From a virus, in the IMG/VR virus record IMGVR_UViG_3300002595_000019, positions 19,513 through 83,512 of that record: a DNA stretch of 64,000 nucleotides; one strand, written 5' to 3'. Within the stretch, counting starts at the first letter, position 1, and every line of letters begins with the position of its first letter. The notes under the pieces are model-generated. The model saw only the letters and a list, made by a program, of their open reading frames with translations, made no database searches and was not told the origin of the DNA. Of the stretch, positions 33,648 through 64,000 are shown piece after piece. A program made the translations under genes and the position numbers.

Positions 33648-33782
33648 GCTCGTAAAATCAGCAAAGACATTCAGCCTATCCTATCGAGCCACGTTGAGAC
33701 GTGCGTACTACTATATAATAAAGAATATTACGAGAAGGAAGTTAAGGGGAAAGTGAAGGCTGAAGTGGTGACGGAAGTATAA
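33591..33782 (+). pseudogene. rlmD: Displaced 3' end of 23S rRNA m5U methyltransferase gene, interrupted by att scar
   Basis: MDMFPQT-[~25 aa insert]-HVETCVLL matches the RlmD/RumA C-terminal VDMFPHT.HVE.V.LL motif. Confidence 0.7.
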
Positions 33783-33802
33783 ATCGATATTTATGTATTA
33801 TA

Positions 33803-33836
33803 AAGGGCATCTAGTTTTACAGCTAGGTGCTTTTTT
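33803..33836 (+). terminator. Terminator after rlmD remnant
   Basis: GCATCTAG / CTAGGTGC stem + TTTTTT. Confidence 0.8.
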
Positions 33837-33887
33837 AGTGCGTAAATAACAGAATGTCAATATAATTCCATTAATTTCATAAAAGTA

Positions 33888-33938
33888 ATTGACTTAGACA
33901 ATAAATAGTACTATAATAATTATATTGACTTAGACAAT
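33888..33938 (+). promoter_or_regulatory. Sigma-A promoter with two identical 15-bp operator-like boxes
   Basis: TTGACT(33889)-17-TATAAT(33912); ATTGACTTAGACAAT at 33888 and 33924. Confidence 0.8.
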
Positions 33939-33957
33939 TTTTTAGGGAGGTGGATGA

Positions 33958-34551
33958 TTGTTAGGATTAGAATACATTTTAGGTTTGTATAATATGCAGC
34001 ATATAGAACTGGCAGAAAAATTAGGAATAAAAAAGCAAAATATAAACCTTTGGATTAAAGGAAAACAAAATATTCCTAAAAAATATCTCCCTGTACTAGA
34101 AGAGCTTTTTGGAATAGATAAAGAGTATTTTATTAAAGAGTTGACTGAAATAGAAAAGTTGGAAATTCAAAAAGAAAAGTTAAAAAAAGATTTGAAACCA
34201 GTTATCAAAAGCCATGAACAGCAGTTTATGATTGGAGAGATTAATGACTTAGTAGAAGTACCGATATATGATAAAGAAGAAATGAATACCATTGAGCGAA
34301 ACATCGAAAAGGCAAAGCTCGTATCAAGATTTAAAGAAGCACTAGATATTATTGATAATAATCCATATATGGATACATATAAGCTGATGATAGAGTTGTT
34401 AGAAAAGGTTCAACATGAGGTGGTTCTCCATAAGACCATTGAAGCATTAGCCCATTATTATGAAGTATTACCAGACTGGGTGGTGAGTGAACCTGAACAA
34501 GAAGAATTTGAGGAAGAACTATTTGAAGTATTTGATGATCATAATTTTTAA
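33958..34551 (+). CDS. XRE-family HTH transcriptional regulator
   Basis: [24 protein letters not shown]. Confidence 0.85.
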
Positions 34552-34571
34552 GTAAAGGGAGGACAAAACAA

Positions 34572-36089
34572 ATGTCAACAGGCAATATTGGATTTGAAGA
34601 AACACTATGGAAAGCAGCTGATAAACTAAGAGGAAGTATGGACGCTAGTGATTATAAGCACGTAGTATTGGGGTTACTCTTCCTGAAATACATCTCTGAT
34701 AAATTTGAAACAAAATACAATCAACTTTTAGAAGAAGGGGATGGATTCGAAGAAGACCGAGATGAATATACTTATGAGAATATCTTTTGGGTTCCCAAAG
34801 AAGCAAGATGGGATTATATCAAAGACAATGCCAAAGACCCTAAAGTAGGGCAGTATATTGATGATGCCATGATTCTCATTGAAAAAGAAAATCCAACCCT
34901 AAAAGGGGTATTAGATAAAAGATATGCGAGACCAGAGCTGGATAAAAGAAGGCTTGGAGAGCTTATTGATTTGATTTCTACGATTAAACTTCATCAAAAC
35001 GGAGAAAAGGATTTACTGGGTAGAGTATACGAATACTTCTTGGGTAAATTTGCTAGTGCTGAAGGAAAAGGCGGTGGAGAGTTCTATACACCCACAAGCG
35101 TTGTTAAGACTTTGGTTGAAATGATAGAACCTTATCAAGGTAGAATCTATGATCCTTGTTGTGGTTCAGGTGGAATGTTTGTTCAAAGTGAAAAATTTGT
35201 TGAAGAACATCAAGGGAAAATAGAAAACCTTTCAATATACGGTCAAGAACTAAATTCAACGACTTGGAAACTATGTAAAATGAATCTTGCCATCAGAGGT
35301 TTAGATAGTAATTTAGGAGATCACCATGATGACACCTTCCATAATGATTTGCATAAAACATTGAAAGCTGACTATATCTTAGCAAACCCACCTTTCAATA
35401 TTAGTGATTGGGGTGGAGATAAATTAACAGATGATGTGAGATGGAAATATGGAACACCACCAACAGGAAATGCTAACTATGCATGGCTTCAACATATGGT
35501 TTATCATCTAGCACCAAATGGGGTTGCAGGAGTTGTTCTGGCCAATGGAGCATTGAGCTCTAACACTTCAAACGAAGGAGAAATCAGAAAAAGTTTATTA
35601 GAAGATGACAAAGTTGATGCGATTGTAGCATTGCCTGATAAGTTGTTTTATTCTACAGGAATACCGGTTTCATTATGGATATTAAATAGAAACAAAAAAG
35701 ACAATCCAAAGTTTAGAAGCAGAGAGGATGAGATACTTTTTATCGATGCGAGAAGCTTGGGAGAAATGATTGATAGAAGACATAGGGAATTAAAAGAAGA
35801 GGATATTAAAAAGATTGCAGACACTTATCATCAGTGGAGAAATGTTGATAGTAACTATGAAGATATAAAAGGTTTCTGTAAATCAGCGAAACTTGAAGAC
35901 GTAAGAGAACATGAATATGTATTAACTCCAGGAAGATATGTAGGAATTGAAGATATAGAAGATGATGGCATACCTTTTGAAGAAAAAATGGAGAATATGA
36001 CCAGTGAATTAGGAGAGTTATTTGCTAAGTCTAGACGCCTAGAAGAGGAGATCAGAAAGAATCTAGGGGGGATTGGGTATGAGTTTTAA
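34572..36089 (+). CDS. hsdM: Type I R-M methyltransferase subunit
   Basis: [30 protein letters not shown]. Confidence 0.95.
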
Positions 36090-37371
36090 GAAAACGGAAG
36101 TCGGAAGGATACCAGATGTATGGGATGTTAAGATGATTCAGGAAATTGGTGAGGTTATAAGTGGAGGAACTCCTAAGACAAAAGAAAATTCTTATTGGGA
36201 TGGAAATATTTCATGGATAACACCAAAAGACTTATCAAGCTTTACGGAAAGATATATAGATAGAGGAGAAAGAAGTATTACTGAAGAGGGCTTGAAAAAT
36301 TCAAGCACAAAGCTTTTACCAAAAGGTACAGTTTTGTTTAGTTCAAGAGCTCCAATTGGATATTTAGCAATTGCAAAAAAAGAATTATGTACAAATCAAG
36401 GATTTAAAAATATTGTATGTAACAAAAATTATTCTAATAATGAGTTTTTATACTATATGTTAAAAGCTAAGAAAAATAAAATTGAAAGTATAGCTGGGGG
36501 GTCTACGTTTAAAGAGGTTTCAGGAAAAGTTGTAAAAGAATTCAAAATACCTGTACCACCTTTACCAGAACAAAAAGCCATAGCCCACATTCTCTCAACC
36601 CTAGACGAAAAAATCGAAGTCAACAACCAAATCAATAAAACCCTTGAAAACATGGCACAAGCAATTTTTAAACAATGGTTTGTAGATTTTGAATTTCCAA
36701 ATGAGGATGGAGAACCCTATAAATCCAGTGGTGGTGAGATGGTTGAAAGTGAACTTGGGATGATACCTAAGGGTTGGGAAGTTAGGAATTTAAAAGAAAT
36801 AGCTGATATGAAAAATGGTGTTAACTATGGTAGAGATCAAGAAGGAAAAGAAATCAAGGTAGTGAATGTTAGAGATTTCGATGGGGCAATGTTGGTAAAT
36901 GATTACAAATTAGATAAAGTATTCTTGTCGGATAAACAGATTAATGATTACCTGTTATCAATATTTGATACTATAGTGGTAAGAAGTGCAAAACCTGGAG
37001 AAACGTTATTAGTAATGAATGAATTGGATAAGGTGTATTCAGGATTTACAATTAGGGTTAGGGCAAAGGAGGATCAAAATAAGATTTATCTATTTAATTG
37101 TTTAAGAAGGGGGATGGAAGTACTTAACAATTCCTCTAATGGAACAGTGTTTAAAAATTTAAACCAGCAGATACTCGGGTCATTAAAAATTAATCTACCT
37201 CATAATGAAATTATTAACAAATTCAACAGAGTAATAAAACCTCTTTTCAGGAAGATTAATCACCTAATGGATGAGATCGTTGTATTGATACAAATCAGAG
37301 ACACACTCCTTCCAAAACTCATGTCAGGAGAAATCAGAGTACCGCTTAAAGAAGAAGGTGAAGTGTCATGA
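36079..37371 (+). CDS. hsdS: Type I R-M specificity subunit
   Basis: Two TRDs; [23 protein letters not shown]. Confidence 0.95.
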
Positions 37372-37571
37372 AATTTGGTATTAGAAAACCAAGTTTAAAG
37401 AAACGAATATCTGCAAGAACAAGCATAAAGAGACAAGTTGTCCATAGAGCAGGATTAAAAATGCCTAGAGGTTGGGGATGGCTTAGAAATCCAAAGAAAT
37501 ATGCGTACAATAAGGTATATAACAAAACATCTTTTGATATTTTTAAATTGATTAAAAAACTTTTTAAATAA
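37368..37571 (+). CDS. Small very basic conserved hypothetical protein
   Basis: Coupled ATGA start; [32 protein letters not shown]. Confidence 0.7.
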
Positions 37572-37596
37572 TTGGAGTTCGAAAGGGGGAAGGAAC

Positions 37597-40500
37597 TTGA
37601 GCTTATTCGAGAATTTTACAGAAGATTTTTTAGAAGAGGCTGCCATAGAGATCTTACAAGAATTAGGTTATGAGTATGTATTTGCACCTGACATCTCATG
37701 TGATGGAGAATATCCTGAAAGAAAAGATTATCGGGAAGTATTTTTGGAACAAAGAGTAAAGGATGCTTTATTCAGAATTAACAGAGACTTACCAGCTGAA
37801 GCTTTAGAGGATGCCTATCGGCAGATTATTACTTTTAACAGTCCTATGCTAGAAGAAAACAACCGATACTTTCACAAACTATTGGTAGAAGGAATCGAAG
37901 TATCTTATAAGGAAAAGGACGTCATTAGAACGAAACGGGCTTATATTATTGATTTTGATGATATGGACGGAAAGAAAAGCAATAATGAATTCTTAGTAGT
38001 AAATCAATTTACCATTATTGAAAATGAAGAAAGAAGACCCGACTTAATTTTATTTATCAATGGGATTCCAGTAGTAGTCATTGAGTTGAAGTCAGCCAGC
38101 GATGAAAATGTAGGGATTGAAAATGCCTATAATCAAATCCAAATATACAAAAGAGATATTCCATCTTTATTTAACTATAATGCCTTCTGTATCTTATCTG
38201 ATGGTATTAATGCCAAAGCAGGAACCATTACTTCTAATGAAGAACGATTTATGAATTGGAGAAGTATTGATGGAGAAACTGTTGAACCATTATCCAAGCC
38301 ACAATATGAAGTCTTGTTTTATGGCATGCTTGCAAAGGAACGACTTCTTGATATTATTAAAAATTTTCTTCTATTCCAAGAATCAAAGGAAGAAGAGAAA
38401 GATGCAGATGGCAATAAAATTGGAGATAAGAAAACAATTATTAAAATACTAGCTGCATATCACCAGTATTTTGCTGTAAAAAAAGCTATAGAAAAAACAA
38501 AGGAAGCCACTAGAGAAGATGGAGATAGAAAGATTGGTGTTATCTGGCATACCCAAGGTTCTGGAAAAAGCTTTTCTATGGTTTTCTATACAGCAGGACT
38601 AGTGCGGGAGTTAAACAATCCGACTATTGTGGTGATTACGGATAGAAATGACTTGGATGACCAATTATTTAGTACTTTTGCAAAATCTCAGGATATATTA
38701 AGGCAGACACCCAAACAGGCTGATGTTAGAAAGTTAACCGATGAACAAAAGAAACAACAAGCTAAGGAAAATTCAAAGGAAATCAATGGACTGTTTGATT
38801 TGCTGAATGATCGAGAGTCAGGTGGTATTATATTTACTACCATTCAAAAATTCAAACCAGAAGAAGGAGAAATGCCAGCTCTTACAAAGCGGAAAAATGT
38901 TATTATCATCGCTGATGAAGCCCATAGAAGTCAATATGGACTTGATGCAAAAACGGATGTGAAAACAGGGGAAGTAAAATATGGCTATGCAAAATATTTA
39001 AGAGATGCTCTTCCAAATGCCTCTTTTATCGGTTTTACAGGCACCCCCATTGACTTAGAAGATCGTTCTACAACTGCTGTGTTTGGGCATTGTATAGATA
39101 CCTATGATATGACACGAGCAGTGGAAGATGAAGCTACTGTAAAAATCTATTATGAAAATAGGATCATTAAACTAGAAACTGATGAAGAAGAATTGATTAA
39201 AATTGATGAGGAATTTGAAGAAGTTACAGAGGGTCAAGAGGATTTTGAACGAGAGAAGAACAAAACCAAATGGTCAAGGTTAGAAGCCATTGTCGGTTCT
39301 CCAAATAGAGTGAAAAAGCTTGCTGAAGATATTGTAAATCACTATGAAGAGAAGTCTAAGACCATAGATGGTAAAGCCATGATTGTTTGCATGAGTCGAA
39401 GAATTTGTGTAGACCTTTATGATGAGATTATTAAACTAAGACCTGACTGGCATGATGATGATGTAAATAAAGGAAAGATCAAGGTAGTCATGACTGGAAG
39501 TGCCTCAGATAATGAAAGATTACAAAAGCATGTTGGTGGAAAGCAACGAAGAGATACATTGGCGAAAAGAATGAAAGATAATGCTGATGAATTAAAAATC
39601 GTTATTGTTCGTGATATGTGGCTTACTGGTTTTGATGTGCCTTCTATGCATACCATGTATATTGATAAGCCTATGAAAGGTCATAATCTTATGCAGGCGA
39701 TTGCGAGAGTAAATAGGGTATTCAAAGATAAATCAGGCGGTGTAGTAGTTGATTATCTAGGAATTTTAGAAAGTTTAAAGAATGCACTAAAAGAATACAC
39801 AGATGGAGATAAGAAAAATACAGGAATTGATACTTCTGTTGCCATTTCCATTATGCTTGAAAAACTTGAAATACTACAAGGAATGATGCATGGATTTGAT
39901 TACTCCAAATATATGGGAACATCGCAAAAAGAAAGAATTAGAGCAATTACAGGCGGCATGGACTTTATTCTTGGAAAGCCAGAAGAAGACCAAAAGGAAT
40001 TCAAAAAAATATCTGTAGAATTGGCAAAGGCTCACTCCTTATGTGCAGCTACTGAGGATGGGAAAGCAAAGGCATTGGAAGTTAGCTACTTCAAAGCAGT
40101 AAAGGCAAGTTTAGCAAAGTTAAAAGAAAAAGATGCGGTTAAAAAGTCTAAGAAAGAAATAGAAGCAAGAGTAAATCAGATGTTGGAGCGTTCTATTATT
40201 TCAGAAGATGTCATTGATGTTTTTGATGCAATGGGACTAAAAAGACCAGATGTTTCTATTTTGTCAGAGGAATTTTTAGATGAAGTAAGAGAAATGAAAC
40301 ATAAAAACTTAGCAGTAGAAATGCTTAAGAAGTTATTAGAGGGCAATATTAAATCAATGGAAAAAAGAAATTTAGTAAAATCTGAAAGATTTTCTGAGAA
40401 GTTGAAAAAAGCCTTAAATAAATATAGAAACCAAGCCATTACCAATGCAGAGGTTATAGAAGAACTAATCAGGATGGCTCACGAAATGAAAAAAGCAAGG

Positions 40501-40860
40501 GAAGAGGAGAAGGATTTAGGGTTAAATGAAGATGAGATTGCTTTCTATGACGCATTAACAGCCGATGAGGTTGTGAAAGAGTTTATGGAGGATGAGACCT
40601 TAAAAAAGATTGCTCAAGAATTAACTTTTGCTATTAAAAATAACATTACCATTGACTGGAGTGTAAGAAAAAGTGCTCAAGCAGGCATGAGAAGGATCAT
40701 AAAAAGACTTCTTAAAAAATATGATTATCCACCAGAACAGGCAAAAAATGCACTTAAAGTTGTTATGAGACAGGCAGAAAAGATGTGTGGCAATGTTAAC
40801 GTAGAAGACATCCAGTATGATAAAGTAGCGGAAGAAAAGCAAGATTACATTTTGAGATAG
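37597..40860 (+). CDS. hsdR: Type I R-M restriction subunit
   Basis: [36 protein letters not shown]. Confidence 0.95.
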
Positions 40861-55027: not shown

Positions 55028-56629
55028 ATGCAAGCACAACAAGACCATCACCGCCAAAATCTCCTGTTAAAAGAATATCTGAACAAATATTTCTCTCCGA
55101 ACAAGATAGAAGAACTTGTCGGGGAGTTTTCATTTTCGGAGCTTCGCAGGTTGCTTGGCGAGATGGATATAGAATTTTTTGCCTTGTGTTACTTCCCGAA
55201 ATACTTTGATAGAAAGTTCGGACAGTTTCATAAGGAGTTATTTGAAGAACTAAAATATATGCTGGACAATAAAGGGTTGATTGAGGCTTTCGGATTGCCA
55301 AGAGAACATGGCAAAAGCACAATCAACTCTTTTTTATTTCCGCTGTATTCAACACTATACGGTAAATCCTGCTTTACGTTGATAATATCAGCAACAGAGC
55401 AGATTGCACTCCCTTTTCTTGATATGATTAAGGATGAACTTGAAAACAACCAATTATTGATTGAGGACTTCGGCATTTATAAAGGAAACCGTTGGAACAA
55501 TAATGAAATATGGATTCGTGGCAGAGGCTGTTTGGATGCCTGTATAATGATACGTGGAATTGATGGCTCATTGAGGGGTATCCACTTTAAGCAATATCGT
55601 CCCCAGCTTGTTCTTTTAGATGACTTATTAAAAGACGATACAGCAAAGTCGGAAACCAAACGTGAGCAAGTAAAAAGCACATTTACCGATGTAGTAATAC
55701 CGATTGGAACTAGAGATACAAATATTCTTGTTGTCGGAACTGTGCTCCATGAGGAAGACCTTATGGCTGATTTACTGAAAGGTAAAATTCCAGGAGTGAG
55801 AAGTATAAAGAAAGCTTCTATAGTTAATTGGGCAGAAAGGGATGACCTCTGGAGTGAATGGGAAGCAAAATATAATAACCTTCAGGACTTAGATAGAATT
55901 GAATCTGCTAAGTCCTTTTTTTATGACCATCAGGAAGAAATGCTGGAAGGAACAGAAATTCTATGGTCTGAATATCTGGATTATTATTATCTTATGTGTA
56001 AGAAACAGGCTATGGGAGATAAGTCATTCTATAAGGAAATGCAGAATGATCCACGCAGTACCGATGATTATATTTTCCAGAATATATCCTTTTGGGAGAA
56101 GCTGCCTGAATATGAGGAGCTTGAAGTCATTATGTACATTGACCCTGCAATAAAGGCAGGAAAGAGAAATGACTATTCTGCTATCACAATTCTTGGACAG
56201 CACAGGAAAACCAATCAAATGTATGTAATTGACGGTTCTATTTATAAGCTTCTGCCTGATGACCTGTTTTCAGTTGTAATAGAAAAATTGCAGTATTACC
56301 CTGTTGAAAAAATAGGATTTGAAGCGACACAGGCTCAGAGTTATATGAAGCAGAAATTTGAAGAGCAGCTATGGCAGAATAAAATTTATGCTCCCGTTGA
56401 GGAAGTTGTTGCAAAGGGACAGAAGCATGAGAGAATTATTACTTTAGAACCAGATATTAAGAAAGGACATATACTGTTCAATTCTTCCAATGTGGGTTAT
56501 AATAATCAAGTAAAAGATTATAACAAGGGTGCAAAGCATGATGATGCTCCTGATAGCCTATATGGTGCTGTACAATTGGTAAAGGGAGTACAGAGGATTA
56601 GGTTTTTTGACAGGAATTTATTGTTTTAA
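55028..56629 (+). CDS. Terminase large subunit (Terminase_6-like)
   Basis: PREHGKST, LLDDL, YIDPA, HDDAPDSL. Confidence 0.93.
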   Translation: MQAQQDHHRQNLLLKEYLNKYFSPNKIEELVGEFSFSELRRLLGEMDIEFFALCYFPKYFDRKFGQFHKELFEELKYMLDNKGLIEAFGLPREHGKSTINSFLFPLYSTLYGKSCFTLIISATEQIALPFLDMIKDELENNQLLIEDFGIYKGNRWNNNEIWIRGRGCLDACIMIRGIDGSLRGIHFKQYRPQLVLLDDLLKDDTAKSETKREQVKSTFTDVVIPIGTRDTNILVVGTVLHEEDLMADLLKGKIPGVRSIKKASIVNWAERDDLWSEWEAKYNNLQDLDRIESAKSFFYDHQEEMLEGTEILWSEYLDYYYLMCKKQAMGDKSFYKEMQNDPRSTDDYIFQNISFWEKLPEYEELEVIMYIDPAIKAGKRNDYSAITILGQHRKTNQMYVIDGSIYKLLPDDLFSVVIEKLQYYPVEKIGFEATQAQSYMKQKFEEQLWQNKIYAPVEEVVAKGQKHERIITLEPDIKKGHILFNSSNVGYNNQVKDYNKGAKHDDAPDSLYGAVQLVKGVQRIRFFDRNLLF

Positions 56630-56658: not shown

Positions 56659-57471
56659 ATGAATACGGTCTTTGTTAGCATACTAACAAGCTTGATTGTG
56701 AGTTTAATAACATTCACACTTGGAATGAAATCTGGTAAAAATCAAGCCGACAGGCAACGATTAAAAGAACTATATAAAAATATAACCGTCCATTTTCAAA
56801 ATCTGAAGAAAGGTCTGGAAAGCCATACTCCAAAAACATGGAGAAGCTTTTCTAATAAATCAGGTAATTCAGACCCCCTTATAAAAAGAATGATAAAAAA
56901 TGGTGACATAATTGAAATAAATGCAAAGATGTCTAAAAGAGCGGAAGAGACTGAAAAACAGGCACTTGCTTTGGGTTGGAGATTTTATGATATTTATAAG
57001 GATTTACATGCTATATCGATTGAAATAATTAAAAAGTATGCAACTATATATCACGAATCTACGGGAAACAATTATTGTACTAAAAAATCTGAGAACAAAA
57101 TTGGGCGACCTTTTTGGGAATGTGGGTTTGGAATTCTCCTAGATAAAAAGCTAATTGATGAAAAAATATCATATTTAAATGATAGTCCCAACAATGGTTT
57201 CAATTTTATTCACACTGAAGACGGTAGGATATTGTACTCGATAACAATTTATCCTGATGACTTAACGGACATTTCCATTAAGGATTTACTCTATGAGATT
57301 AATAGTATATCAATTGAAAATATAGAAAATGCAAGTAGTTTATTAAAACAGAAAGTGGAAATATGTAAAGATATTAATAAAATTATCAAAAAGAGTATGA
57401 GAAGAGCGAGAGACCCACATACATTCATTGAAACCATTGGGGGTGCTTTCCTAGATATCTTCAAAATCTAA
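56659..57471 (+). CDS. Moron-like hypothetical protein with N-terminal membrane anchor
   Basis: FVSILTSLIVSLITFTLG helix; AT-rich; own terminator. Confidence 0.7.
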   Translation: MNTVFVSILTSLIVSLITFTLGMKSGKNQADRQRLKELYKNITVHFQNLKKGLESHTPKTWRSFSNKSGNSDPLIKRMIKNGDIIEINAKMSKRAEETEKQALALGWRFYDIYKDLHAISIEIIKKYATIYHESTGNNYCTKKSENKIGRPFWECGFGILLDKKLIDEKISYLNDSPNNGFNFIHTEDGRILYSITIYPDDLTDISIKDLLYEINSISIENIENASSLLKQKVEICKDINKIIKKSMRRARDPHTFIETIGGAFLDIFKI

Positions 57472-57534: not shown

Positions 57535-58830
57535 TTGCAGATAACCGAAAGTCTTATAAAGCAGTGCTTGACTGAGTTGGAGAGTAACTCAAGTATCAAG
57601 CAGAAGTATAAAGATTATTATGAGGGAGACCACAGCATACTTAAGGATTATGACATGCAGGACAGCAGAAGTAACCGAAAGCTTATATTCAACTTCCCTC
57701 GTAAGTTTGTAGATAATGAAACAGGCTACCTTCTCGGAAAGCCTGTTAATTTTGTATCCAAAAGCGATGATAAAAGCATCATTGACTGCATTGACAGGAA
57801 CAGCAGCCATTGGGACAAGGAGCATAATATTTCTCTACGAAAGCAAAGCGAAATTTTCGGTGAGAGCTATGAGTTAAATTATGTCAATACCGATGGAGAA
57901 TTCTGTGCAACAATTCTGACACCATTGGAGTGCTATGTGTTAGAGGATGGGACAGCTGAAAGGAATGTTCTGCTGGCAATACACAAATTCAAAAGAAGGT
58001 TTGATGATATTGAATACCTTGATGTTTATACTGATGCAGAAATACTACATTATAAGCTGGTAGAGGATTCTGAAATTGAACTTGTCGGAAAACACAATCA
58101 TATATTCGGAAGAGTTCCTGTAATTGTGTGTCCTGCCAACAGCGAACGTAAAAGCGGATTTGAAGATTTGATAAGCCTTTTTGACTCATACAATGCTTTG
58201 AATTCGGACTTGGTCAATGAAATCGCCGACCACCGCAATGCTTATCTCATTATTGAAAATGCAAAAATTGAAGAAGAGGATTTGCTCAAGATGAAGCAGA
58301 TGGGTATCATCCAAGTACCAAAGGGTGGAGCGGTAAAGTGGCTTACAAAAGATATTAATGATTCCTTTGTAAAAAATGAACTTGAGAATATTGAACGTAA
58401 AATCTATGACATGATGGATGAAGTAAATTTCAATGAGAACTGGGCATCCAATACATCTTCGCTGGCTCTTAGGAATAAGCTGCTAAACCTTGAAAACAGA
58501 GTATCAATGCGACAGGCTTTTATGGAAAAAGTAATCAAAGAAAGGCTGAAGAATCTGTTTATATATATCCGCAAGAAAGAAGGAAAGGTCTTTGATTATA
58601 GGGATGTGGCAGTTAAGTTCACCAGAAACCTTCCTACAGACCTTGTTGGACTGGCAGATGTAATTGTAAAACTTAAAGATGTCTGCTCACAGGAAACACT
58701 GCTTACATTGCTGCCATTCATTGAGAATCCAGCAGTAGAGTTGCAGAAATATTTAAAGGAAAAGGCTAATTCCGTTGAAGGGAGTGATTTAGAAAAAACA
58801 TCAATTGAAACCGCAGTAATAAGAAACTAA
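57535..58830 (+). CDS. Portal protein, SPP1 gp6-like
   Basis: YYEGDH, NFPRKFVD...GYLLGKPV, GRVPV, DSYN...SD..N, SSLALR.KL, FTRNLP. Confidence 0.92.
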   Translation: MQITESLIKQCLTELESNSSIKQKYKDYYEGDHSILKDYDMQDSRSNRKLIFNFPRKFVDNETGYLLGKPVNFVSKSDDKSIIDCIDRNSSHWDKEHNISLRKQSEIFGESYELNYVNTDGEFCATILTPLECYVLEDGTAERNVLLAIHKFKRRFDDIEYLDVYTDAEILHYKLVEDSEIELVGKHNHIFGRVPVIVCPANSERKSGFEDLISLFDSYNALNSDLVNEIADHRNAYLIIENAKIEEEDLLKMKQMGIIQVPKGGAVKWLTKDINDSFVKNELENIERKIYDMMDEVNFNENWASNTSSLALRNKLLNLENRVSMRQAFMEKVIKERLKNLFIYIRKKEGKVFDYRDVAVKFTRNLPTDLVGLADVIVKLKDVCSQETLLTLLPFIENPAVELQKYLKEKANSVEGSDLEKTSIETAVIRN

Positions 58831-58891: not shown

Positions 58892-59476
58892 ATGACATTT
58901 GAAGAAGTAAAAGAGTTTTTAGAAAGTGAAGCTGGAAAAGCTTCAGAAGTAACAGCATATTTGCAGGGGTTAAATCCATTGACTGTTGCAAGGGTGCAGG
59001 AATATATCGATAAAACGCCTGAAGGAAAATCATGGGCTGATTCTGTAAAGGATAAGCATTTACAGAAAGGACTTGAGACATGGAAAGCAAATAATCTGGA
59101 ATCACTTCTCAACGATGAAATTAAGAAGAGATTTCCTGAAAAGGATGAAAAGGAACTTGAGGTTGAAAAGCTGAGAGCCGAGATTGAAAAGATGAAGCAG
59201 GAAAAGCTGAGAGAAACTCTCACTAATAAAGCCATCAAAATAGCAAATGAGAAGAATCTGCCGATTGAATTGGTGGATTTTTTTATTGGTGCAGATGATC
59301 AAGCCACTGTTTCAAATGTTAAGGTTCTGGAGGATACCTTTGGGCAGTACGTACAGAAAATGGTTGAGCAAAGGCTCAAGGGTGATGGCTATGTCCCACC
59401 AAAGGATAATGATGGAAGGCAGAGCAACTTAGAAAGTCTGTCTATGGAAGAATATATCAAAGCGAGAAGCAAATAA
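58892..59476 (+). CDS. Capsid scaffolding protein (DUF4355-like)
   Basis: KGLETWK, LPIELVDFF, RLKGDGYVP; between portal and capsid. Confidence 0.8.
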   Translation: MTFEEVKEFLESEAGKASEVTAYLQGLNPLTVARVQEYIDKTPEGKSWADSVKDKHLQKGLETWKANNLESLLNDEIKKRFPEKDEKELEVEKLRAEIEKMKQEKLRETLTNKAIKIANEKNLPIELVDFFIGADDQATVSNVKVLEDTFGQYVQKMVEQRLKGDGYVPPKDNDGRQSNLESLSMEEYIKARSK

Positions 59477-59502: not shown

Positions 59503-60627
59503 ATGGGAAACACAATTTTAACTCCATCTATTATAGCAAAGGAAGCGTTGATGCAATTAAGAAATAATACGGTAATGGCAAGTCTGGTACATAGGGATTA
59601 TTCACAGGAATTTGTTGCTGGAGTGGGTAATACAGTTACAATCAGAAAACCAGCTACTTTTGAAGCACAGGAATTCAATAGAAGTACAGGTATTCAAATT
59701 CAGGATGCTACTGAAGGTTCTGAATCTGTGGTATTGGATAAGCTTTTGGATGTATCCTTTGAGGTAACATCTGAACAGCTTACTATGGATATAAGGGATT
59801 TCAGTGAACAATTGCTGATTCCAGCAATGCAGGGTTTTGCTAACAAAATTGACCAGTATTTATTGGGTCTCTATAATGAGATTCCTTTTAACTTCGGTAC
59901 AGCAGGAAGCACTCCTTCCGAAATTAGCGATATAACTGGTGCAAGGAAAGTATTAAATGATAATAAAGTACCTTTTGCTAACAGAAATCTTGTTGTTGAT
60001 ACTGCTGCGGAAGATAAATTTCTGCAATTGGCTACATTCCATGAAGCAGATAAAGTAGGTGATGATGGTACTGCATTAAGAGAAGCTTCTCTTGGTAGAA
60101 AGTTCGGATTCAATATCTTCATGGATCAGAATGTTAAGAAGCATACCAAGGGTACTTTGACAGGAGACGAAGGGACAATCAAAGTAAAAGGTGCTGTCAG
60201 TGCTGGTGCAACTCAAATTGTGATTGACGGTGCAAACCTTACTGGAACCCTTGTCAAAGGTGATGTTATAGCAATTAGCGGTAAATCTTATGTAGTAACC
60301 GAAAATGCAACAGCTGCAGCCAACGAAATTGCTGTAAAACTTTATCCTGAAACAACGGAAATTGCAAATGATACAGAAGTTGCTATTGTATCAACACATA
60401 CAGCAAATCTTGCATTCCATAAAAATGCTTTTGCATTGGTAAGCAGACCGCTGGCATTGCCAAGAGGGTTGAGTTCCGAGCAGAAGGCAATTGTAAACTA
60501 TGATGGATTTGGTTTAAGAGTTATTTATGATTACAATAGCCAGTACAAGAAGGATGTTATTTCAATTGATATGCTTTGCGGAGTAAAGACTTTAAGTCCA
60601 GAACTTGCTTGTAGACTATTGGGATAA
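59503..60627 (+). CDS. Major capsid protein, P22 coat family
   Basis: MGNTILTPSIIAKEAL..L.N, GNTVTIRKP, NLAFHKNAFALV.RPL..P, SIDMLCGVK. Confidence 0.9.
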   Translation: MGNTILTPSIIAKEALMQLRNNTVMASLVHRDYSQEFVAGVGNTVTIRKPATFEAQEFNRSTGIQIQDATEGSESVVLDKLLDVSFEVTSEQLTMDIRDFSEQLLIPAMQGFANKIDQYLLGLYNEIPFNFGTAGSTPSEISDITGARKVLNDNKVPFANRNLVVDTAAEDKFLQLATFHEADKVGDDGTALREASLGRKFGFNIFMDQNVKKHTKGTLTGDEGTIKVKGAVSAGATQIVIDGANLTGTLVKGDVIAISGKSYVVTENATAAANEIAVKLYPETTEIANDTEVAIVSTHTANLAFHKNAFALVSRPLALPRGLSSEQKAIVNYDGFGLRVIYDYNSQYKKDVISIDMLCGVKTLSPELACRLLG

Positions 60628-60678
60628 TAATTAAAACTGGGGGTGTACCGTTTGGTGCATCCCCTTTTAAATTTAAGG

Positions 60679-60909
60679 ATGGTGAGGTTTTTGAAATGTC
60701 CATTTTGCAATATTGAATACAATTCTCCCGAAACATTTAATGTCCATATTCAAGGTTGCTACTATAAGGAGTGCCCTATACCAGTACAAACAGACTTTGA
60801 ATTACTGACGTATCAGGAATTGAAGGATATGGCTCTTTCAAAGGGTATTAAGGCAGGAAGTATGAAAAAGACAGAAATTATCAAAGCACTAAAAGAAACG
60901 GAGGTATGA
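60679..60909 (+). CDS. Small protein with C2HC zinc finger and HeH/Rho-N-like C-terminus
   Basis: CPFC-x12-H-x3-C; LTYQELKDMA..KGI..SMKK.EII.AL; start uncertain. Confidence 0.6.
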   Translation: MVRFLKCPFCNIEYNSPETFNVHIQGCYYKECPIPVQTDFELLTYQELKDMALSKGIKAGSMKKTEIIKALKETEV

Positions 60910-60913
60910 TATC

Positions 60914-61219
60914 ATGCTTGAGACCGTAAAAATGTTACTTGGGATAGATGTAGCAGATACATCAAAGGATATGATTTTGAATCACTTTATAAATCAGGCA
61001 ATAAGACTTGCATTGTCTTATTGCAATGTATACGAATTGTCTGCCGAATATGATGGAGCAGTTGCTGATTTGGCTGTATTTCTTTATAAAAACAAGGATA
61101 GTGTCGGCTATAAGCAGAAGACAGAGGGAGAGAGAAGTGTAACATATGAAGGTGGAGGAATTCCAGAGAATATAAAATCAGCATTGCCGCTACCTAAAAT
61201 TAAGGTCGGGTGTGAGTGA
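60914..61219 (+). CDS. Head-tail connector (gp6/gp15-like)
   Basis: VKMLLGI..KDMILNHFI, KTEGERSVTY. Confidence 0.8.
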   Translation: MLETVKMLLGIDVADTSKDMILNHFINQAIRLALSYCNVYELSAEYDGAVADLAVFLYKNKDSVGYKQKTEGERSVTYEGGGIPENIKSALPLPKIKVGCE

Positions 61220-61494
61220 TGTTTAATGATACATTAGTAAAAATATATTCAAGCCCTAATTGGCTTTCTTATATTAAATCCATCTATGCAGATTTTCAGC
61301 CTTATACCAAAAGCATAGTATTTGAGGATGGCTTCCAAATTGATATCACAAACAGGATATTTTGTGATATTGATAGTTCAATTAATAAAAACAGCTACAT
61401 GGAAATTGATAATGAAAAGTATAAAGTTATGGATTTGAAGAAATGGGATAATTATTTGGAAGTTTACCTGTACAAGTTAAAAAGGCAGGTGTAG
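61216..61494 (+). CDS. Putative head-closure-like protein
   Basis: Coupled; C-terminal EIDNEKYKV.D.K.WD.Y.EV.L beta-barrel pattern. Confidence 0.55.
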   Translation: MMFNDTLVKIYSSPNWLSYIKSIYADFQPYTKSIVFEDGFQIDITNRIFCDIDSSINKNSYMEIDNEKYKVMDLKKWDNYLEVYLYKLKRQV

Positions 61495-61500: not shown

Positions 61501-62652
61501 ATGCAGGATATAGATGAAATGATAGATTTTTTTCTTTATGAAAAAGGTGAATATATCAAAATCAATGGTGTAGACCAAATTGGAATAATAATGGATGCAG
61601 TTGACAAACTGACTTATTATGATGATAAGATTATTCGCTGCAAATGCCAGATAAAAACAGGTGATATTGTTGAATATAACAATTTAAAATATATCATTAT
61701 CAGCCAGATTGATAAGGAAGAAAACTCGTTTAAAGCAAGGATTAGAAAATGCAGCTACAGAATAGCTTTTAACTGGTCTGGTAATATCAAATGGTTCGAC
61801 TGTATTGAAGAAAGTAAAGTTTTTGATGTTTCAACGGGGACATATATATCTGTAGCTTCAGGGAATATTTATATAACCGTACAGTACAATGCGGATACAA
61901 GAAATATCGCTTTGAATAACAGATTCTATGTTACCAACCAACCTTTCAAAATTACTGGCATTGATAAATCTCAAGAAGGACTTATAAAATTTAACTGTGC
62001 ATTGGATTCTATAAGTACATCCTATGACGATGTTGAAAATAACATAGCTGACAGATGGCGTTATGAAACAGGTCATACCTATACATTAACAATAAATAAC
62101 GGAGACACAGCAAATGTACTTGTTAACAATGTTTTTCAGTTAAATGTGTCGGCAACTGACAATGGCTCTGCAATTGCTAATCCTGTGATTACCTATACGA
62201 GCAGTGATCCTAATGTTGTAAGTGTTGACAACACAGGAAAAGTAATGGGTATTTCGCTTGGGCAGGCTTTGATAACTGCAAAACTTACTTACCATGATAC
62301 GATTTCAGATTCCATTACAATAACATCAGTAGAGACATTAACGCATAGTTATACAATAAGCATTTCTGGCAGCAGTACTATAAAAATAGGGCAGAGCCAG
62401 TCTTATGTAGCACATATTTATGACAATGGTGCGGAAGTTTTTGATAAATCTGTAGTTTGGAGTGTTAGAAATCAAGATGGAACTACTTCCCCAGCTTATT
62501 CCACAATTACAGCAAGTACAGGAAATAGTGCCACAATTAAAGCCAATAGTAGCAGTACTTATATTAATAGATATACTGTTCTAAAAGCTACACTGTCAGA
62601 TGATTCGACAGTATTTAAAGAATTCTCAGTACAATTAAAATCACTATTCTAA
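61501..62652 (+). CDS. Virion protein with C-terminal Ig-like (Big_2) domains
   Basis: ITYTSSDPNVVSVDNTGKVMGISLGQALITA; second Ser/Thr-rich beta domain. Confidence 0.8.
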   Translation: MQDIDEMIDFFLYEKGEYIKINGVDQIGIIMDAVDKLTYYDDKIIRCKCQIKTGDIVEYNNLKYIIISQIDKEENSFKARIRKCSYRIAFNWSGNIKWFDCIEESKVFDVSTGTYISVASGNIYITVQYNADTRNIALNNRFYVTNQPFKITGIDKSQEGLIKFNCALDSISTSYDDVENNIADRWRYETGHTYTLTINNGDTANVLVNNVFQLNVSATDNGSAIANPVITYTSSDPNVVSVDNTGKVMGISLGQALITAKLTYHDTISDSITITSVETLTHSYTISISGSSTIKIGQSQSYVAHIYDNGAEVFDKSVVWSVRNQDGTTSPAYSTITASTGNSATIKANSSSTYINRYTVLKATLSDDSTVFKEFSVQLKSLF

Positions 62653-62658
62653 ATCAAT

Positions 62659-62686
62659 GGCAGGCTTGAGGGCTTGCCTTTATTTT
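62659..62686 (+). terminator. Terminator closing the head operon
   Basis: GGCAGGC-TTGAGG-GCTTGCC-TTTATTTT. Confidence 0.75.
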
Positions 62687-62712
62687 ACCACTTTTCTGAA
62701 AGGAGCATGTTT

Positions 62713-62865
62713 ATGAGCAAAACACCAAATGTAGAATATTTGCTCAGTGTTCATTATCTCAAGAAGTTGAGAGAAAAGGGGTTCATAACATACGAGCAAT
62801 ATGATGAAATCGATAGATTAAACAGAATTTCATTTTTAAAGGGTCAAGGGCAAAAATCTGCCTAA
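62713..62865 (+). CDS. Small SHOCT-like protein preceding recombinase
   Basis: LKKLREKGFITYEQYDEID..N. Confidence 0.7.
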   Translation: MSKTPNVEYLLSVHYLKKLREKGFITYEQYDEIDRLNRISFLKGQGQKSA

Positions 62866-62880
62866 GACCCTTATTTTAAC

Positions 62881-62909
62881 TTTACTTATTGCCACACTGA
62901 TTATATCAT
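62881..62909 (+). promoter_or_regulatory. Sigma-A-like promoter of recombinase
   Basis: TTTACT-17-TATCAT. Confidence 0.6.
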
Positions 62910-62952
62910 GTGTGTACCCAAGTGCTATATTTAAAAAAGGAAGGAGATTCTT

Positions 62953-64000
62953 ATGGCAAATGCAATAAAAAAGGTTCAAGTATTACAGCCAATTCAAAGA
63001 CAGGAGAATTCTGAAAACGCAATAAACACAGCAAAGAGGAGAGTTTGTGCATACTGTAGGGTGAGCACTGATTCCGATGAACAAATGGAGAGCTACAATG
63101 CTCAGGTTAGTGAATACAAGAAAAAGATTGCTGAAAATCCAGAGTGGAAATTCGTTGACATATATGCCGATGCTGGAATAAGCGGAACAAATGTTAAGCA
63201 CAGACTTGCATTTAATAGAATGATTAAAGATTGCCAAAACGGGTTGATAGACCTTGTTATTACAAAGTCCATTTCCAGATTTGCAAGAAATACAGTGGAT
63301 TGTCTGAAGCATGTAAGGGAATTGAAAAATATTGGAGTTGAAGTATTCTTCGAAAAAGAAAATATATATTCCTTTGACTCAAAAATGGAATTGGTTCTGA
63401 CCATGCTAAGTTCTATAGCCCAAGAGGAAAGCCGAAATATTTCTGAGAACACAAAATGGGGACTAAGAAAACGCTTCAGGGATGGGGTTACAATTTGCAA
63501 TACAGAAAGGTTTCTTGGTTATGATAAAGATGAAAATGGCAATCTTGTGATTAATGTGGAGCAAGCTGAAATAGTAAGAAGGATTTTCAGAGAATACCTC
63601 GATGGTAAAGGGTATGCTGCCATAGCGAGAGGACTTGAAGCCGATGGAATTAAAACCATAGCTGGTAAATCAAAATGGTGGGATTCCAGCATTAGAGGAA
63701 TTCTTGAAAATGAAAAGTATTATGGAGAGCTTCTTTTGCAAAAAACTGTGACAGTTGATTACCTGACCAAGAAAAGAGTTGATAATGATAACCTTGAACC
63801 AATGTACAGAATTGAAAATAATCACGAGCCGATTATATCGAAGGAAATGTTTGAACTTGTTCAGCAGGAACGAAAGAGACGCTTTGAAATTACAAGGGGC
63901 AGAAATGAGGACAGAAGAAAGTATACCAATAAATATGGTTTCAGTGGAAAGTTGTACTGTGAAAAATGCGGAAAAACTTTGAAACGCAGACACTGGAACA
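62953..64000 (+). CDS. Large serine recombinase (3' truncated by window; absent from ORF track)
   Basis: [37 protein letters not shown]; SD AAGGAG. Confidence 0.93.
   Translation, partial: MANAIKKVQVLQPIQRQENSENAINTAKRRVCAYCRVSTDSDEQMESYNAQVSEYKKKIAENPEWKFVDIYADAGISGTNVKHRLAFNRMIKDCQNGLIDLVITKSISRFARNTVDCLKHVRELKNIGVEVFFEKENIYSFDSKMELVLTMLSSIAQEESRNISENTKWGLRKRFRDGVTICNTERFLGYDKDENGNLVINVEQAEIVRRIFREYLDGKGYAAIARGLEADGIKTIAGKSKWWDSSIRGILENEKYYGELLLQKTVTVDYLTKKRVDNDNLEPMYRIENNHEPIISKEMFELVQQERKRRFEITRGRNEDRRKYTNKYGFSGKLYCEKCGKTLKRRHWN

Follow-up and report, generated by a model that had tools for sequence, protein, structure and literature searches.

A ~31-kb element of anaerobic Clostridia with a YonO-type RNA polymerase gene, a complete head module and no tail genes: a probable capsid-forming satellite

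The window analysed here is a stretch of 64,000 nucleotides, bases 19513-83512 of the 96,242-bp provirus record IMGVR_UViG_3300002595_000019 (Table 1). Its left part is a complete siphovirus prophage, here called prophage 1, with PHROG matches to TerL, portal, major head, major tail, tape measure, Dit, Tal, holin and endolysin, and with Resolvase, Recombinase and Zn_ribbon domains at its right end (23663-27248, Pfam). To the right lies a discrete element of ~31 kb (window positions ~33,690-64,600); its serine recombinase gene runs beyond the window, to 64,566. The first-pass annotation had described an element of more than 30 kb with restriction-modification, NYN, RNA polymerase, helicase, Xer-like resolver, methylase, head and serine recombinase genes next to a complete tailed prophage, and all these components were found present and intact.

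Table 1. Features of the window, with positions, strand and supporting evidence.
Feature	Position	Strand	Evidence or remark
Prophage 1, complete, siphovirus-type, GC 0.49	1..27248	+	Ends in two large serine recombinases; PHROG hits
Variable four-gene cassette: DUF6796, alpha/beta hydrolase, DUF1232, EamA	31191..33560	+	Pfam; between prophage 1 and junction
Layered rlmD att scar	33590..33690	+	Two ATGGATATGTTYCC (MDMFP) arm copies 41 bp apart and a P-arm-like spacer
Element left end (P' arm)	33687..33782	+	Replacement RlmD C-terminus SHVETCVLLYNKEYYEKEVKGKVKAEVVTEV, then stop
Xre-type HTH regulator, putative repressor	33958..34551	+	HTH_3 8e-7; 96% identical in C. acetireducens
Type I R-M cargo hsdM, hsdS, hsdR	34572..40860	+	N6_Mtase 7e-118, Methylase_S 1e-51, T1RH-like_C 5e-117
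PC4-like small protein	41167..41391	+	PF02229 PC4 4.6e-12; upstream of RNAP gene
YonO/RdRP-family single-chain RNA polymerase, 1166 aa	42208..45708	+	DRDGD motif; homology
Conserved hairpin GCCAGC-GAA-GCTGGC	45716..45730	+	Just 3' of RNAP gene; second copy 48914-48928
YonV-like SF2 helicase/P-loop protein, 732 aa, putative replication protein	45998..48196	+	Walker A AKAGFGKSS, IIDEKP
Rha-family regulator	49019..49690	+	Phage_pRha 1e-19
ParB-N fused to N6/N4 DNA methyltransferase	49735..50988	+	Pfam; 41-93% across clade
Amidoligase-like protein	51111..51893	+	phrog_2443 1e-56
Small terminase	52327..52887	+	phrog_309 1e-31
Xer-like tyrosine recombinase	53028..53897	+	Phage_integrase 1e-37; between terS and terL
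NYN-domain protein, variable cargo slot	54053..54847	+	PF01936 1e-16
Large terminase	55028..56629	+	phrog_38 3e-91
270-aa protein with N-terminal membrane helix, variable	56659..57471	+	No family match (Pfam/PHROG); in some relatives only
SPP1-type portal	57535..58830	+	PF05133 6.5e-95
Scaffolding protein	58892..59476	+	DUF4355 4e-33
P22-type (HK97-fold) major coat protein	59503..60627	+	PF11651 1.9e-110
Small Zn-finger/Rho_N-like protein	60643..60909	+	Weak Pfam and PHROG matches only
Head-tail adaptor, gp6-like	60914..61219	+	Phage_connect_1 1.5e-11; phrog_132 5e-13
92-aa protein, putative head closure by size and position only	61216..61494	+	No significant family match; position conserved in clade
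Neck protein, two tandem neck-type beta-barrels and two Ig-like domains	61501..62652	+	AF2 model, VIA-align, Foldseek, Big_2
SHOCT_2 small protein	62674..62865	+	PF20612 3.4e-6; upstream of recombinase
Large serine recombinase, 537 aa	62953..64000 (to 64566 past window)	+	Resolvase, Recombinase and Zn_ribbon_recom; phrog_95 1e-140

The early region is dominated by the type I restriction-modification genes, in which HsdM, HsdS and HsdR are all full length and which fill the same slot in two relatives (G005 and G006), and by the gene for a predicted RNA polymerase. The motif GGCDRDGDELFV of this 1166-aa protein aligns with NGCDFDGDLLFV of Thomasclavelia phage TR-TP1 gp3 (blastp 6e-33; also 3e-25), with 24% identity over 56% of the length. 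TR-TP1 gp3 itself matches the Pfam family RdRP, PF05183 (4.5e-19, 69 bits, cut-off 23.8). Searched directly against Pfam, the window protein (P0001) gave no match at E < 0.01; its Atlas neighbours carry PF05183. Further tblastn matches were to 'RdRP' genes of Thomasclavelia and Enterocloster phages, ORF099 of Bacillus phage 0305phi8-36 and Bacillus phage BUCT082. The family homology (PF05183; PMC5467207) and the aspartate triad DxDGD place it among the YonO-like/RdRP two-barrel RNA polymerases, and we infer polymerase activity from these features. The protein is 84-98% identical in five relatives (G001, G002, G005, G006 and G010), and G003 has a divergent homologue with the motif DCDGD. The hairpin behind the gene has exact copies at the same position in G005, G006 and G010, the last of which also has the second copy, preceding the late region. 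The PC4-like protein is 67-97% identical in relatives, including G007, which lacks the polymerase. For the putative replication protein, the nearest Atlas clusters by feature and structure are ResIII/DEAD/YonV_C helicases, a lead and not an alignment; it is 82% identical in G010 and 33% in G006. Together with the YomX_C domain described below, the YonO-like and YonV-like proteins uphold the earlier suggestion of a connection to YonO-type phages.

The packaging, head and neck genes are all full length against their models. The head module contains the scaffold (DUF4355) and P22_CoatProtein in place of a prohead protease and HNH, which are absent, and the coat protein is 44-46% identical to some Streptomyces phage capsids. 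The first-pass annotation had set this head type against the HK97-type heads of phage-inducible chromosomal islands of the capsid-forming kind (cf-PICIs); the P22-type coat likewise has the HK97 fold. The Xer-like recombinase occupies the same position, at 51-89% identity, in 13 related loci or records of both subclades. The NYN protein gave no tblastn match in the related loci searched, despite ~1 kb there between recombinase and TerL. About half of the related loci have a match to the SHOCT_2 protein upstream of the recombinase.

The last structural protein was modelled with AF2 (residues 1-195, pLDDT 78). Its best VIA-align matches were the Pam3 neck (Z 9.6), gpFII-like 2pp6 (Z 8.8) and the necks of Pa193, Chi, FCWL1 and R4C, and the second barrel matched neck proteins at Z about 6. 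Z scores of 8-10 are modest, yet the match list is uniform, as the top 12 matches are all phage neck or connector chains (Z 6.8-9.6, ~80 residues). Foldseek gave probabilities of 0.96-1.0 for gpFII-like and stopper chains, and also matched lambda neck/portal chains and the T1 stopper. A role as tail tube was rejected, since by the VIA-align and Foldseek matches the fold is that of a phage neck. The Ig-like part corresponds to Big_2 (Pfam), and a YomX_C domain is given in the precomputed annotation. The homologue in L010 has 203 aa and no Ig domains, which are thus dispensable.

Genes for a tube, tape measure, baseplate, receptor-binding protein, holin or endolysin are all absent from the element in the window. 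None of the Pfam and PHROG hits within it points to a protein that binds receptors, degrades cell walls or forms channels, and neither conjugation nor mobilisation genes were found in it. In the 12.7 kb of the record beyond the window, profile hits likewise included no tail or lysis genes; SMEK/DUF2326 and methylase/LlaJI defence genes lie here, and a third phage-like element begins.

The relatives place the element in anaerobic Clostridia and in the gene rlmD. In C. acetireducens DSM 10703 an element whose polymerase and HsdR are 98% and 99% identical to those of the window stands alone, precisely within the 3' end of rlmD, and rebuilds the C-terminus. Its attL lies between VDMFPQT and SHVETCVLL, within a 485-aa ORF with TRAM and tRNA U5-methyltransferase (tRNA_U5-meth_tr) domains that is completed by the same left-end sequence as in the window. 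Its attR directly follows the recombinase gene and precedes the original rlmD tail, THIENVAIIVKKD and stop. No tail or lysis gene lies between these two rlmD ends, and the element has a GC content of 0.33 against 0.26 for its host. A second genome (L007) has the same attR, and in both L007 and L041 a homologous recombinase gene borders on attR and on the original rlmD tail. The 32-kb contig of G005 starts and stops exactly at the att crossover, and from att to att the elements measure ~31-32 kb. With its domains, and with att sites flanking the element in its target gene in these relatives, the recombinase is a large serine recombinase of the phage integrase type.

The window itself presents a more complicated picture. 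Two DMFP copies of an rlmD remnant, at 33590 and 33631, are real, but the rlmD gene body is absent from the record. The proposed rlmD integration holds for C. acetireducens (attL and attR) and L007 (attR), and the window contributes a scar. Its own att junctions are layered scars that are only partly resolved. G006 shares the double-copy junction, contigs from two other studies diverge leftwards at 33633, and a contig from a manure metagenome joins the right arm of prophage 1 to the junction.

Altogether 13 loci have a head module followed by one or more serine recombinases, with either nothing or a holin, alone or together with an amidase, in between. Their coat proteins are 64-91% identical and form one clade in the coat tree (98/96, UFboot/SH-aLRT), with tailed phages outside it: among the outgroups, L045 has a tape measure, L050 a sheath, and the others long ORFs of tape-measure size. 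The hosts belong to at least five Bacillota families (Clostridiaceae, Desulfotomaculaceae, Desulfallaceae, Acutalibacteraceae and Christensenellaceae). No tail gene was found in any of the 13 loci or in the 12.7 kb beyond the window, so that the check by which the first-pass annotation could have been refuted left it standing. Since the tail-less layout is monophyletic and kept across host families, the loss of the tail is old and maintained rather than a one-off deletion. Two other proposed hallmarks are narrower. The polymerase is confined to the subclade of the window, whereas deeper members carry a DUF2800-PolA-VapE-SNF2 module, and it therefore does not define the family. Lysis genes are absent from the window's element and its close relatives, but a holin occurs in the deeper subclade, joined by an amidase in two loci, so their absence is not general to the family. 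Near-identical early regions occur in hosts with GC contents of 0.26 and about 0.33, and late genes are exchanged mosaically; this indicates recent horizontal movement.

We consider it most likely that these elements are a new lineage of satellites that build their own heads and borrow tails; as a capsid-forming satellite family, analogous to cf-PICIs and independently derived, we give this reading a probability of roughly 60%. Both satellite behaviour and particle formation are predictions from gene content. In favour of them are the complete packaging, head and neck genes beside an empty tail and lysis inventory in the window and the 12.7 kb beyond, as well as the defined element ends in rlmD of C. 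acetireducens, the single clade of 13 tail-less loci, the neck fold of the last structural protein and the G005 contig bounded by the att crossover. The capsids of cf-PICIs such as EcCIEDL933 are tail-less and dock to phage tails via adaptor and connector proteins (10.1101/2025.02.19.639094; PMC10085698), which also supports this reading. Furthermore, in G006 a siphophage of the prophage 1 type, collinear with it, lies immediately upstream of the element; the prophage is 41-80% identical to prophage 1 at the amino acid level and the element 84-96% to that of the window. The pairing is thus not one inherited block, which counts in favour, as does the manure-metagenome contig. The holin of the deeper subclade, with an amidase in two loci, is atypical and counts against the reading, as holins are an exclusion criterion for cf-PICIs in SatelliteFinder (PMC10085698); so do the missing phrog_58 match in the C. 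acetireducens genome and the layered junctions of the window.

The large serine recombinase inserts the element at the 3' end of rlmD, with the left end supplying a substitute C-terminus. In the proposed life cycle, derepression involving the Xre repressor and Rha may lead to excision, after which the YonV-like helicase would serve replication and the element's own polymerase would transcribe the late operon, as in SPbeta. Element DNA would be packaged by a headful mechanism into element-made capsids, which the adaptor and neck proteins would close, exposing a surface for tail docking. The Xer-like recombinase could recircularise or resolve the DNA, and the R-M, NYN and membrane-protein slots may hold cargo that benefits the host. 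Tails, and in the window's subclade also lysis, would be supplied by a co-resident tailed phage, most obviously the siphovirus prophage integrated in tandem at this rlmD site. Prophage 1 is a candidate donor of both functions, but no similarity was found between the neck proteins of the two, which leaves tail compatibility unsupported.

The closest parallel are cf-PICIs (PMC10085698; 10.1101/2022.09.08.507074; 10.1101/2025.02.19.639094), which are also integrated, encode TerS, TerL, portal, capsid and adaptor/connector proteins but no tail, carry accessory and defence cargo, and combine own heads with helper tails, a mode expected here as well. Of the SatelliteFinder features (PMC10085698), the element has TerS, TerL, portal, capsid and head-tail adaptor, and it and its close relatives lack tail and holin genes, whereas the deeper subclade carries a holin. 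It differs in size (~31 kb, twice the cf-PICI median of 14 kb) and in integrating into rlmD by a large serine recombinase where cf-PICIs use a tyrosine integrase. Its head is built from scaffold, P22-type coat and SPP1-type portal, in contrast to the protease/HK97-type capsid module of cf-PICIs, which may include HNH. An AlpA/MerR-type regulator and a PICI-type primase-replicase are missing: searches for AlpA and primase-replicase gave no matches in the element, whose early module consists of the YonO-type polymerase and YonV-like helicase, with PolA/VapE in the sister subclade. The Xer-like recombinase inside the packaging operon and the holin and amidase genes of the deeper subclade are further differences. 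Because the strategy is that of cf-PICIs, the designation as a new class was overstated. MiniFlayer, MulchRoom and Phanie (PMC10690885; listed in PMC12822802) are likewise satellites with own capsid proteins, but, going by the descriptions in their papers, they are actinobacterial or other systems that need the helper to replicate. SPbeta and other YonO-encoding temperate phages (PMC5467207; TR-TP1/TP2, Enterocloster phages) share the DxDGD polymerase, YonV-like helicase, YomX_C-type structural domain and serine-recombinase integration, but are complete tailed phages of 90-134 kb; the element, at 31 kb, has neither the complete tailed virion module nor the ~130-kb genome of SPbeta-like phages. 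Streptococcal elements in rumA/rlmD (PMC4701971; PMC7168690) use the same target gene class and recombinase type and accrete several per site, but are ICEs, IMEs and complete prophages, whereas our element lacks both conjugation genes and a tail.

Four other explanations were considered. Firstly, the elements could be defective or domesticated prophage remnants with relic or repurposed head genes, which persist and spread only through the serine recombinase together with other vehicles, for example generalised transduction or conjugative mobilisation. The missing tail and lysis modules, the accretion arrays in which the elements occur alongside others and the CheckV completeness of related records (27-82%) are compatible with this. 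It seems unlikely, however, since the head, neck and packaging genes are intact and collinear across the coat divergence and host families of a single clade, the shared early regions point to recent movement, and mobilisation genes were not found.

Secondly, they could be helper-independent makers of tail-less, DNA-filled heads, equipped with a transcription (YonO-type polymerase) or replication module, packaging and capsid of their own and, in the deeper subclade, a holin, with an amidase in two loci. Their sole requirement would be a tail from whichever compatible phage is present, in the cell or outside it; in the extreme, the Ig-bearing double-barrel neck would deliver DNA without a tail. 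We regard this as improbable. If delivery without any tail were true, it would make this the first tail-less HK97-fold virus lineage. Thirdly, and very doubtfully, the element may be a self-sufficient virus or transfer agent whose Ig-decorated neck serves for adsorption and exit without a helper tail. The deeper subclade does resemble a temperate phage minus its tail, with replication, packaging, head, neck, holin, integrases and, in two loci, amidase, and the Ig-like domains sit where a tail would begin. The C. acetireducens genome has no match to phrog_58, the only tape-measure family searched, so that a helper is not evident there. But no protein for receptor binding, cell-wall degradation or channel formation was found among the Pfam and PHROG hits of the element, the L010 neck does without Ig domains, and no tail-less HK97-fold virus is known. 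In cf-PICIs, moreover, tails are essential (10.1101/2025.02.19.639094).

Lastly, it is highly improbable that the element is one part of an SPbeta-like phage, split or very large, whose tail module is encoded elsewhere, for instance by the adjacent prophage or at an unlinked site. In favour of this, SPbeta (134 kb) has proteins similar to the YonO-, YonV- and YomX-type ones, and the Thomasclavelia and Enterocloster phages that carry YonO measure 90-107 kb. Both in the window and in G006, moreover, the element has a tailed prophage beside it, and G008 has a tape-measure match on a contig that may be the element's own. Against it, TerL, portal, capsid and recombinases are all encoded by prophage 1 itself, rlmD bounds the element on the right in C. 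acetireducens and L007 and on both sides in the former, and the tape-measure matches in G007 and G009 are far from the element.

The four-gene cassette between prophage 1 and the junction is variable. In four other metagenomes its contig depth is near zero with the flanks on either side covered, and one metagenome contig links 31195 to 33581 via 2586 different letters.

The 96,242-bp provirus record, of which the window covers bases 19,513-83,512 and the remainder was also examined, contains at least three elements in tandem: a siphovirus prophage (prophage 1), a low-GC element, and a defence block with the beginning of another phage-like element, the third. The G+C content falls from ~0.49 to ~0.33 around window position 30,000 and stays low from there to the end. 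Prophage 1 is the complete tailed neighbour described in the first-pass annotation, with a set of genes from TerL to endolysin and two large serine recombinases. All components named there for the low-GC element were likewise found as intact ORFs on the + strand, namely the restriction-modification (R-M), NYN, RNA polymerase (RNAP), helicase-type, Xer-like, methylase, head-module and serine-recombinase genes. PHROG and Pfam searches found no tail, baseplate, receptor-binding, holin or endolysin families among the unassigned ORFs of the element. Tail or lysis genes just past the window would have spoken against a tail-less element; none of these families was found in the 12.7 kb that follow the window end.

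Features of the array, in window coordinates
Feature	Position	Strand	Remarks
Prophage 1 early genes	upstream of window
Prophage 1 TerL, portal, capsid, major tail protein, tape measure, Dit, Tal, holin, endolysin	5,276-23,284
Prophage 1 two large serine recombinases	23,663-27,248
DUF6796, alpha/beta hydrolase, DUF1232, EamA	31191-33560		four unrelated genes between prophage 1 and rlmD scar
Xre-type HTH	33,958	+
hsdM/S/R	34,572-40,860	+
PC4-like small protein	41167-41391	+	74 aa; transcriptional coactivator p15 / ssDNA-binding type
1166-aa RNAP protein	42,208-45,708	+
732-aa P-loop protein	45,998-48,196	+
Rha; ParB-N6/N4 methylase; amidoligase		+	between P-loop protein and TerS
TerS	52,327	+
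Xer-like tyrosine recombinase	53028-53897	+	between terS and terL
NYN protein	54,053	+
TerL	55,028	+
SPP1-type portal, DUF4355 scaffold, P22-type coat		+	after TerL
Small Zn-finger protein, gp6-like adaptor, 92-aa protein, 383-aa Big_2 protein, SHOCT_2 protein		+	after coat
Large serine recombinase	62,953-64,566	+	537 aa; ends beyond window

A search with the coat protein yielded 12 viral-contig loci and 79 genome loci. Mapping of the element proteins by tblastn showed that 13 independent loci share one gene order: ParB-methylase, TerS, tyrosine recombinase, TerL, portal, scaffold, coat, adaptor, 92-aa protein, Ig protein and serine recombinase(s). The loci came from Clostridium acetireducens DSM 10703, the metagenome-assembled chromosome OW818645.1, Desulfotruncus arcticus, a Desulfotomaculum MAG, Caproiciproducens sp. 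R1, Christensenella and Limiplasma MAGs and several IMG/VR records. In a maximum-likelihood coat tree they form one clade (98/96), in which coat identity goes down to 64% and host families differ. Outside the clade are a locus with a tape measure (L045, TMP_3), one with a tail sheath (L050) and loci with long tape-measure-sized ORFs behind a run of small connector genes. The tail-less layout thus extends to relatives, in 13 of 13 loci, and since these form a single clade with tailed loci outside, the tail was lost once and its absence kept. The INPHARED phage set (best coat identity 46%) and the PLSDB plasmid set contained no members of the clade; element DNA occurs in biogas-fermenter, anaerobic-digester and manure metagenome contigs from ~15 studies. 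More distant coat relatives, at 54-57% identity, were seen in three genome contigs (L037, L038, L040), where two or three small ORFs separate the coat gene from that of a fibre-like 523-551-aa protein with a common N-terminus and a variable, beta-rich C-terminus. No tape measure, and no recombinase near the coat, was found in these loci, which may represent a short-tailed or otherwise unusual group and were left unclassified.

The last genes of the element's head operon encode an adaptor, a protein with a putative role in closure and a neck protein of stopper-like type, the 383-aa Big_2 protein. The full-length model of the latter is dominated by two Ig domains, and Foldseek searches of the whole protein against the PDB were uninformative, with matches to Ig domains alone (S-layer proteins, cadherins). 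Residues 1-195 were therefore modelled separately (12 sequences, pLDDT 78, pTM 0.73), and the top twelve VIA-align matches to this model were all phage neck proteins: cyanophage Pam3 neck (Z 9.6), the gpFII-like 2pp6 (Z 8.8) and necks or connectors of Pa193, Chi, FCWL1, R4C (stopper), phiCD508, phage 812, Bxb1, Bas63, T4 and P1. The second barrel (residues ~82-180) matched neck or terminator-region chains at Z ~6, and Foldseek on the N-terminal model concurred (lambda neck/portal chains, T1 stopper). The protein also has a precomputed Pfam match to YomX_C, named after an SPbeta protein, and one relative (L010) encodes the 203-aa barrel part alone. According to these models the product would be a head made ready for a tail, not a tail, and the neck protein, with its fused double barrel and Ig domains, offers a concrete handle on the head's choice of tail.

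The RNAP gene, accompanied by that of the helicase, is found in the window's subclade (G001, G002/G010, G005 and G006, RNAP at 84-98%), in which one further member, G003, has a divergent RNAP version with the motif DCDGD. As a family-wide trait the RNAP did not hold, because the Caproiciproducens relative, from the deeper subclade, is RNAP-less. Its early module, the only early region examined in that subclade, contains DUF2800, PolA, VapE primase and SNF2 genes and is of the same kind as that of prophage 1. The proposed lack of lysis genes applies to the window's subclade and fails for the deeper one: in all five of its loci (L012, L014, L033, L034, L035) a holin gene (Phage_holin_4_1) comes after the neck gene and ahead of the recombinases, and L033 and L034 have an additional amidase (in L033 of the Amidase_3 + SPOR type). 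Next to the cargo slot the PC4-like protein is conserved (67-97% identity), and the Caproiciproducens relative has it despite lacking the RNAP. In 13 of the related loci or records, terS and terL flank the Xer-like recombinase (51-89% identity), and its presence at the same place in both subclades makes it a core gene of the packaging operon.

The 1166-aa protein, which bears GGCDRDGDELFV and had no direct match in a Pfam search, belongs to the YonO family by sequence comparison. With tblastn it matched the annotated 'RNA-dependent RNA polymerase' of Thomasclavelia phages TR-TP1/TP2 (3e-25), genes of the same annotation in Enterocloster phages, ORF099 of Bacillus phage 0305phi8-36 and Bacillus phage BUCT082 (125 kb). 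TR-TP1 gp3 scored 69 bits against Pfam RdRP PF05183 (cut-off 23.8), pairwise alignment placed its NGCDFDGDLLFV opposite the motif of the window protein, and ESM Atlas language-model neighbours of the latter bear PF05183. SPbeta YonO is a DNA-dependent RNAP that has a catalytic aspartate triad and transcribes the late operon (PMC5467207). The 732-aa protein has Walker A and B motifs and its closest Atlas clusters, by features and structure, are ResIII/DEAD/YonV_C helicases; a YonV-like helicase is a lead with no alignment behind it. A sequence search of solved structures gave nothing for either protein. The window contains two copies of an exact hairpin, GCCAGC-GAA-GCTGGC (GCCAGCGAAGCTGGC), at 45716-45730 and 48914-48928. 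In the window, G005, G006 and G010 the first comes directly after the stop codon of the RNAP gene. The second, shared by the window and G010, lies ahead of the Rha/late region and has ATTGAGTGGAAAAAG after it, although the flanks differ. The hairpin may act as a terminator, or as a signal to the polymerase that the element encodes.

The gene rumA/rlmD is a documented target of serine-recombinase elements in streptococci (PMC4701971). In C. acetireducens the element, with 98% (RNAP), 99% (HsdR) and 96% (HTH) identity to that of the window, is located between two rlmD halves. On its left lies an ORF of 485 aa, containing TRAM and tRNA_U5-meth_tr domains, which reads ...VSCDPATLARDL...VDMFPQT and then SHVETCVLLYNKEYYEKEVKGKVKAEVVTEV*. 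Window positions 33,690-33,782 are identical to this SHVETCVLLYNKEYYEKEVKGKVKAEVVTEV tail, and the tail is therefore the element's own. On its right, the displaced original rlmD end, THIENVAIIVKKD*, comes straight after the recombinase gene. The two sites are separated by ~32.1 kb, with a G+C content of 0.33 inside the element and 0.24-0.28 outside. In a second genome (L007) the recombinase ORF runs into THVETITRINRA*. The G005 contig (L024+L025; 32,057 bp) is one element long with both ends exactly at the crossover: its first bases lie within the RlmD tail carried by the element (VLLYHKEY...), and its last in the arm next to the recombinase, a few bases short of the crossover. Such ends are compatible with an assembly-graph branch caused by integrated and excised forms coexisting in the sample.

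The left junction in the window itself is a layered scar: MDMFP is encoded twice, at a distance of 41 bp, and a spacer similar to the recombinase-proximal arm is also present. OW818645.1 has the same double junction structure, and contigs from two other studies diverge leftwards at 33,633. Behind the window's recombinase no attR/B' was identified and neither a DMFP nor an HVE motif is present; the DNA to the right is probably that of the following element. Contig searches from the prophage 1 ParB-methylase, its sigma-like protein and the record start were aimed at the rlmD body upstream and did not locate it. The only matches to a 48-nt pattern taken at the record start were unrelated contigs sharing the methylase start, and those reached through the sigma-like protein were other contigs of a phage that is very widespread. 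The rlmD integration proposed in the first-pass annotation is thus established at both ends in C. acetireducens and at the right end in L007, and for the window's array it rests on the scar and the relatives.

Prophage 1 and the element have the rlmD site in common and their recombinases are 37-40% identical; similarity between their neck proteins was looked for and not found. In OW818645.1 a collinear prophage-1-type siphophage is directly upstream of the element. Its proteins are 41-80% identical to those in the window, far more diverged than the element proteins (84-96%), which indicates that the pairing recurs with different partners and is not one inherited block. The C. acetireducens genome had no match to the tape-measure family phrog_58, a single-family search that says little on a helper. 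The sigma-like protein of prophage 1 is present in 170 blocks of the contig collection, so this type of phage is very widespread. Prophage 1 and its OW818645.1 counterpart have a G+C content of 0.45-0.50, against ~0.33 in the neighbouring element and host flank, an unusually large mismatch for a resident prophage. The depth over the four genes between prophage 1 and the scar was near zero in four other metagenomes in which both flanks are present, and a manure-metagenome contig joins the right arm of prophage 1 to the junction with another cassette, of 2586 letters, in place of window 31,196-33,580. This region looks like a cassette-like variable slot at the right end of the prophage.

The closest known counterparts are cf-PICIs, which are defined by int, regulator and primase-replicase together with TerS, TerL, portal, protease/capsid and adaptor/connector, exclude tails and holins by definition and have a median length of 14 kb (PMC10085698). 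The capsids they release are tail-less and dock through adaptor and connector to the tails of various phages (10.1101/2025.02.19.639094). They are reported to have arisen three times, with one origin in a Bacillus/Clostridium/Staphylococcus group with capsid-protease-portal layout (10.1101/2022.09.08.507074). The strategy proposed for our element is that of cf-PICIs, but the parts are not shared. The element has a serine recombinase where cf-PICIs have a tyrosine integrase, lacks the PICI early module and has a scaffold and P22-type coat, and its family is twice the size and has a private RNAP or DNA polymerase. No description of this family turned up in literature searches. The reading as a capsid-forming satellite is supported as far as sequence goes, and on that same ground we infer every step of the life cycle. 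The element represents a conserved and mobile lineage that encodes capsids but no tail, and we propose that it is most likely a satellite (a probability of roughly 60%).

If this is correct, capsid-forming satellites arose at least one more time, from SPbeta-like or P22-coat phages of strict anaerobes, and satellite biology would extend to Clostridia of digesters and guts. Their design would stand apart from that of cf-PICIs in serine-recombinase integration that repairs the target gene, a recombinase within the packaging operon, a private single-chain RNA polymerase or DNA polymerase module and ~10 kb of room for defence cargo. It would also help to account for the YonO-like polymerases reported in 'main genomes' of firmicutes (PMC5467207) and add a new example of satellites that share the attachment site with a presumed helper. 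The culture-collection strain C. acetireducens DSM 10703 is a possible test system.

Lastly, the DUF2800 gene of the third element is 69% DNA-identical to that of prophage 1. Two 10-N runs in this element (record 94446-94455 and 95106-95115) reflect masking or assembly gaps. Beyond the window in the same record, L004 positions 3341-13257 (window-equivalent 64828-74744) encode an ABC-3C-type three-component set (SMEK, MC6-like and DUF2326), followed by an N6/N4 methylase, a C5 methylase, an AAA_5 ATPase and a LlaJI-type endonuclease. These defence genes appear to be left-arm cargo of the third element, and they mirror the methylase cargo ahead of prophage 1 at the record start.
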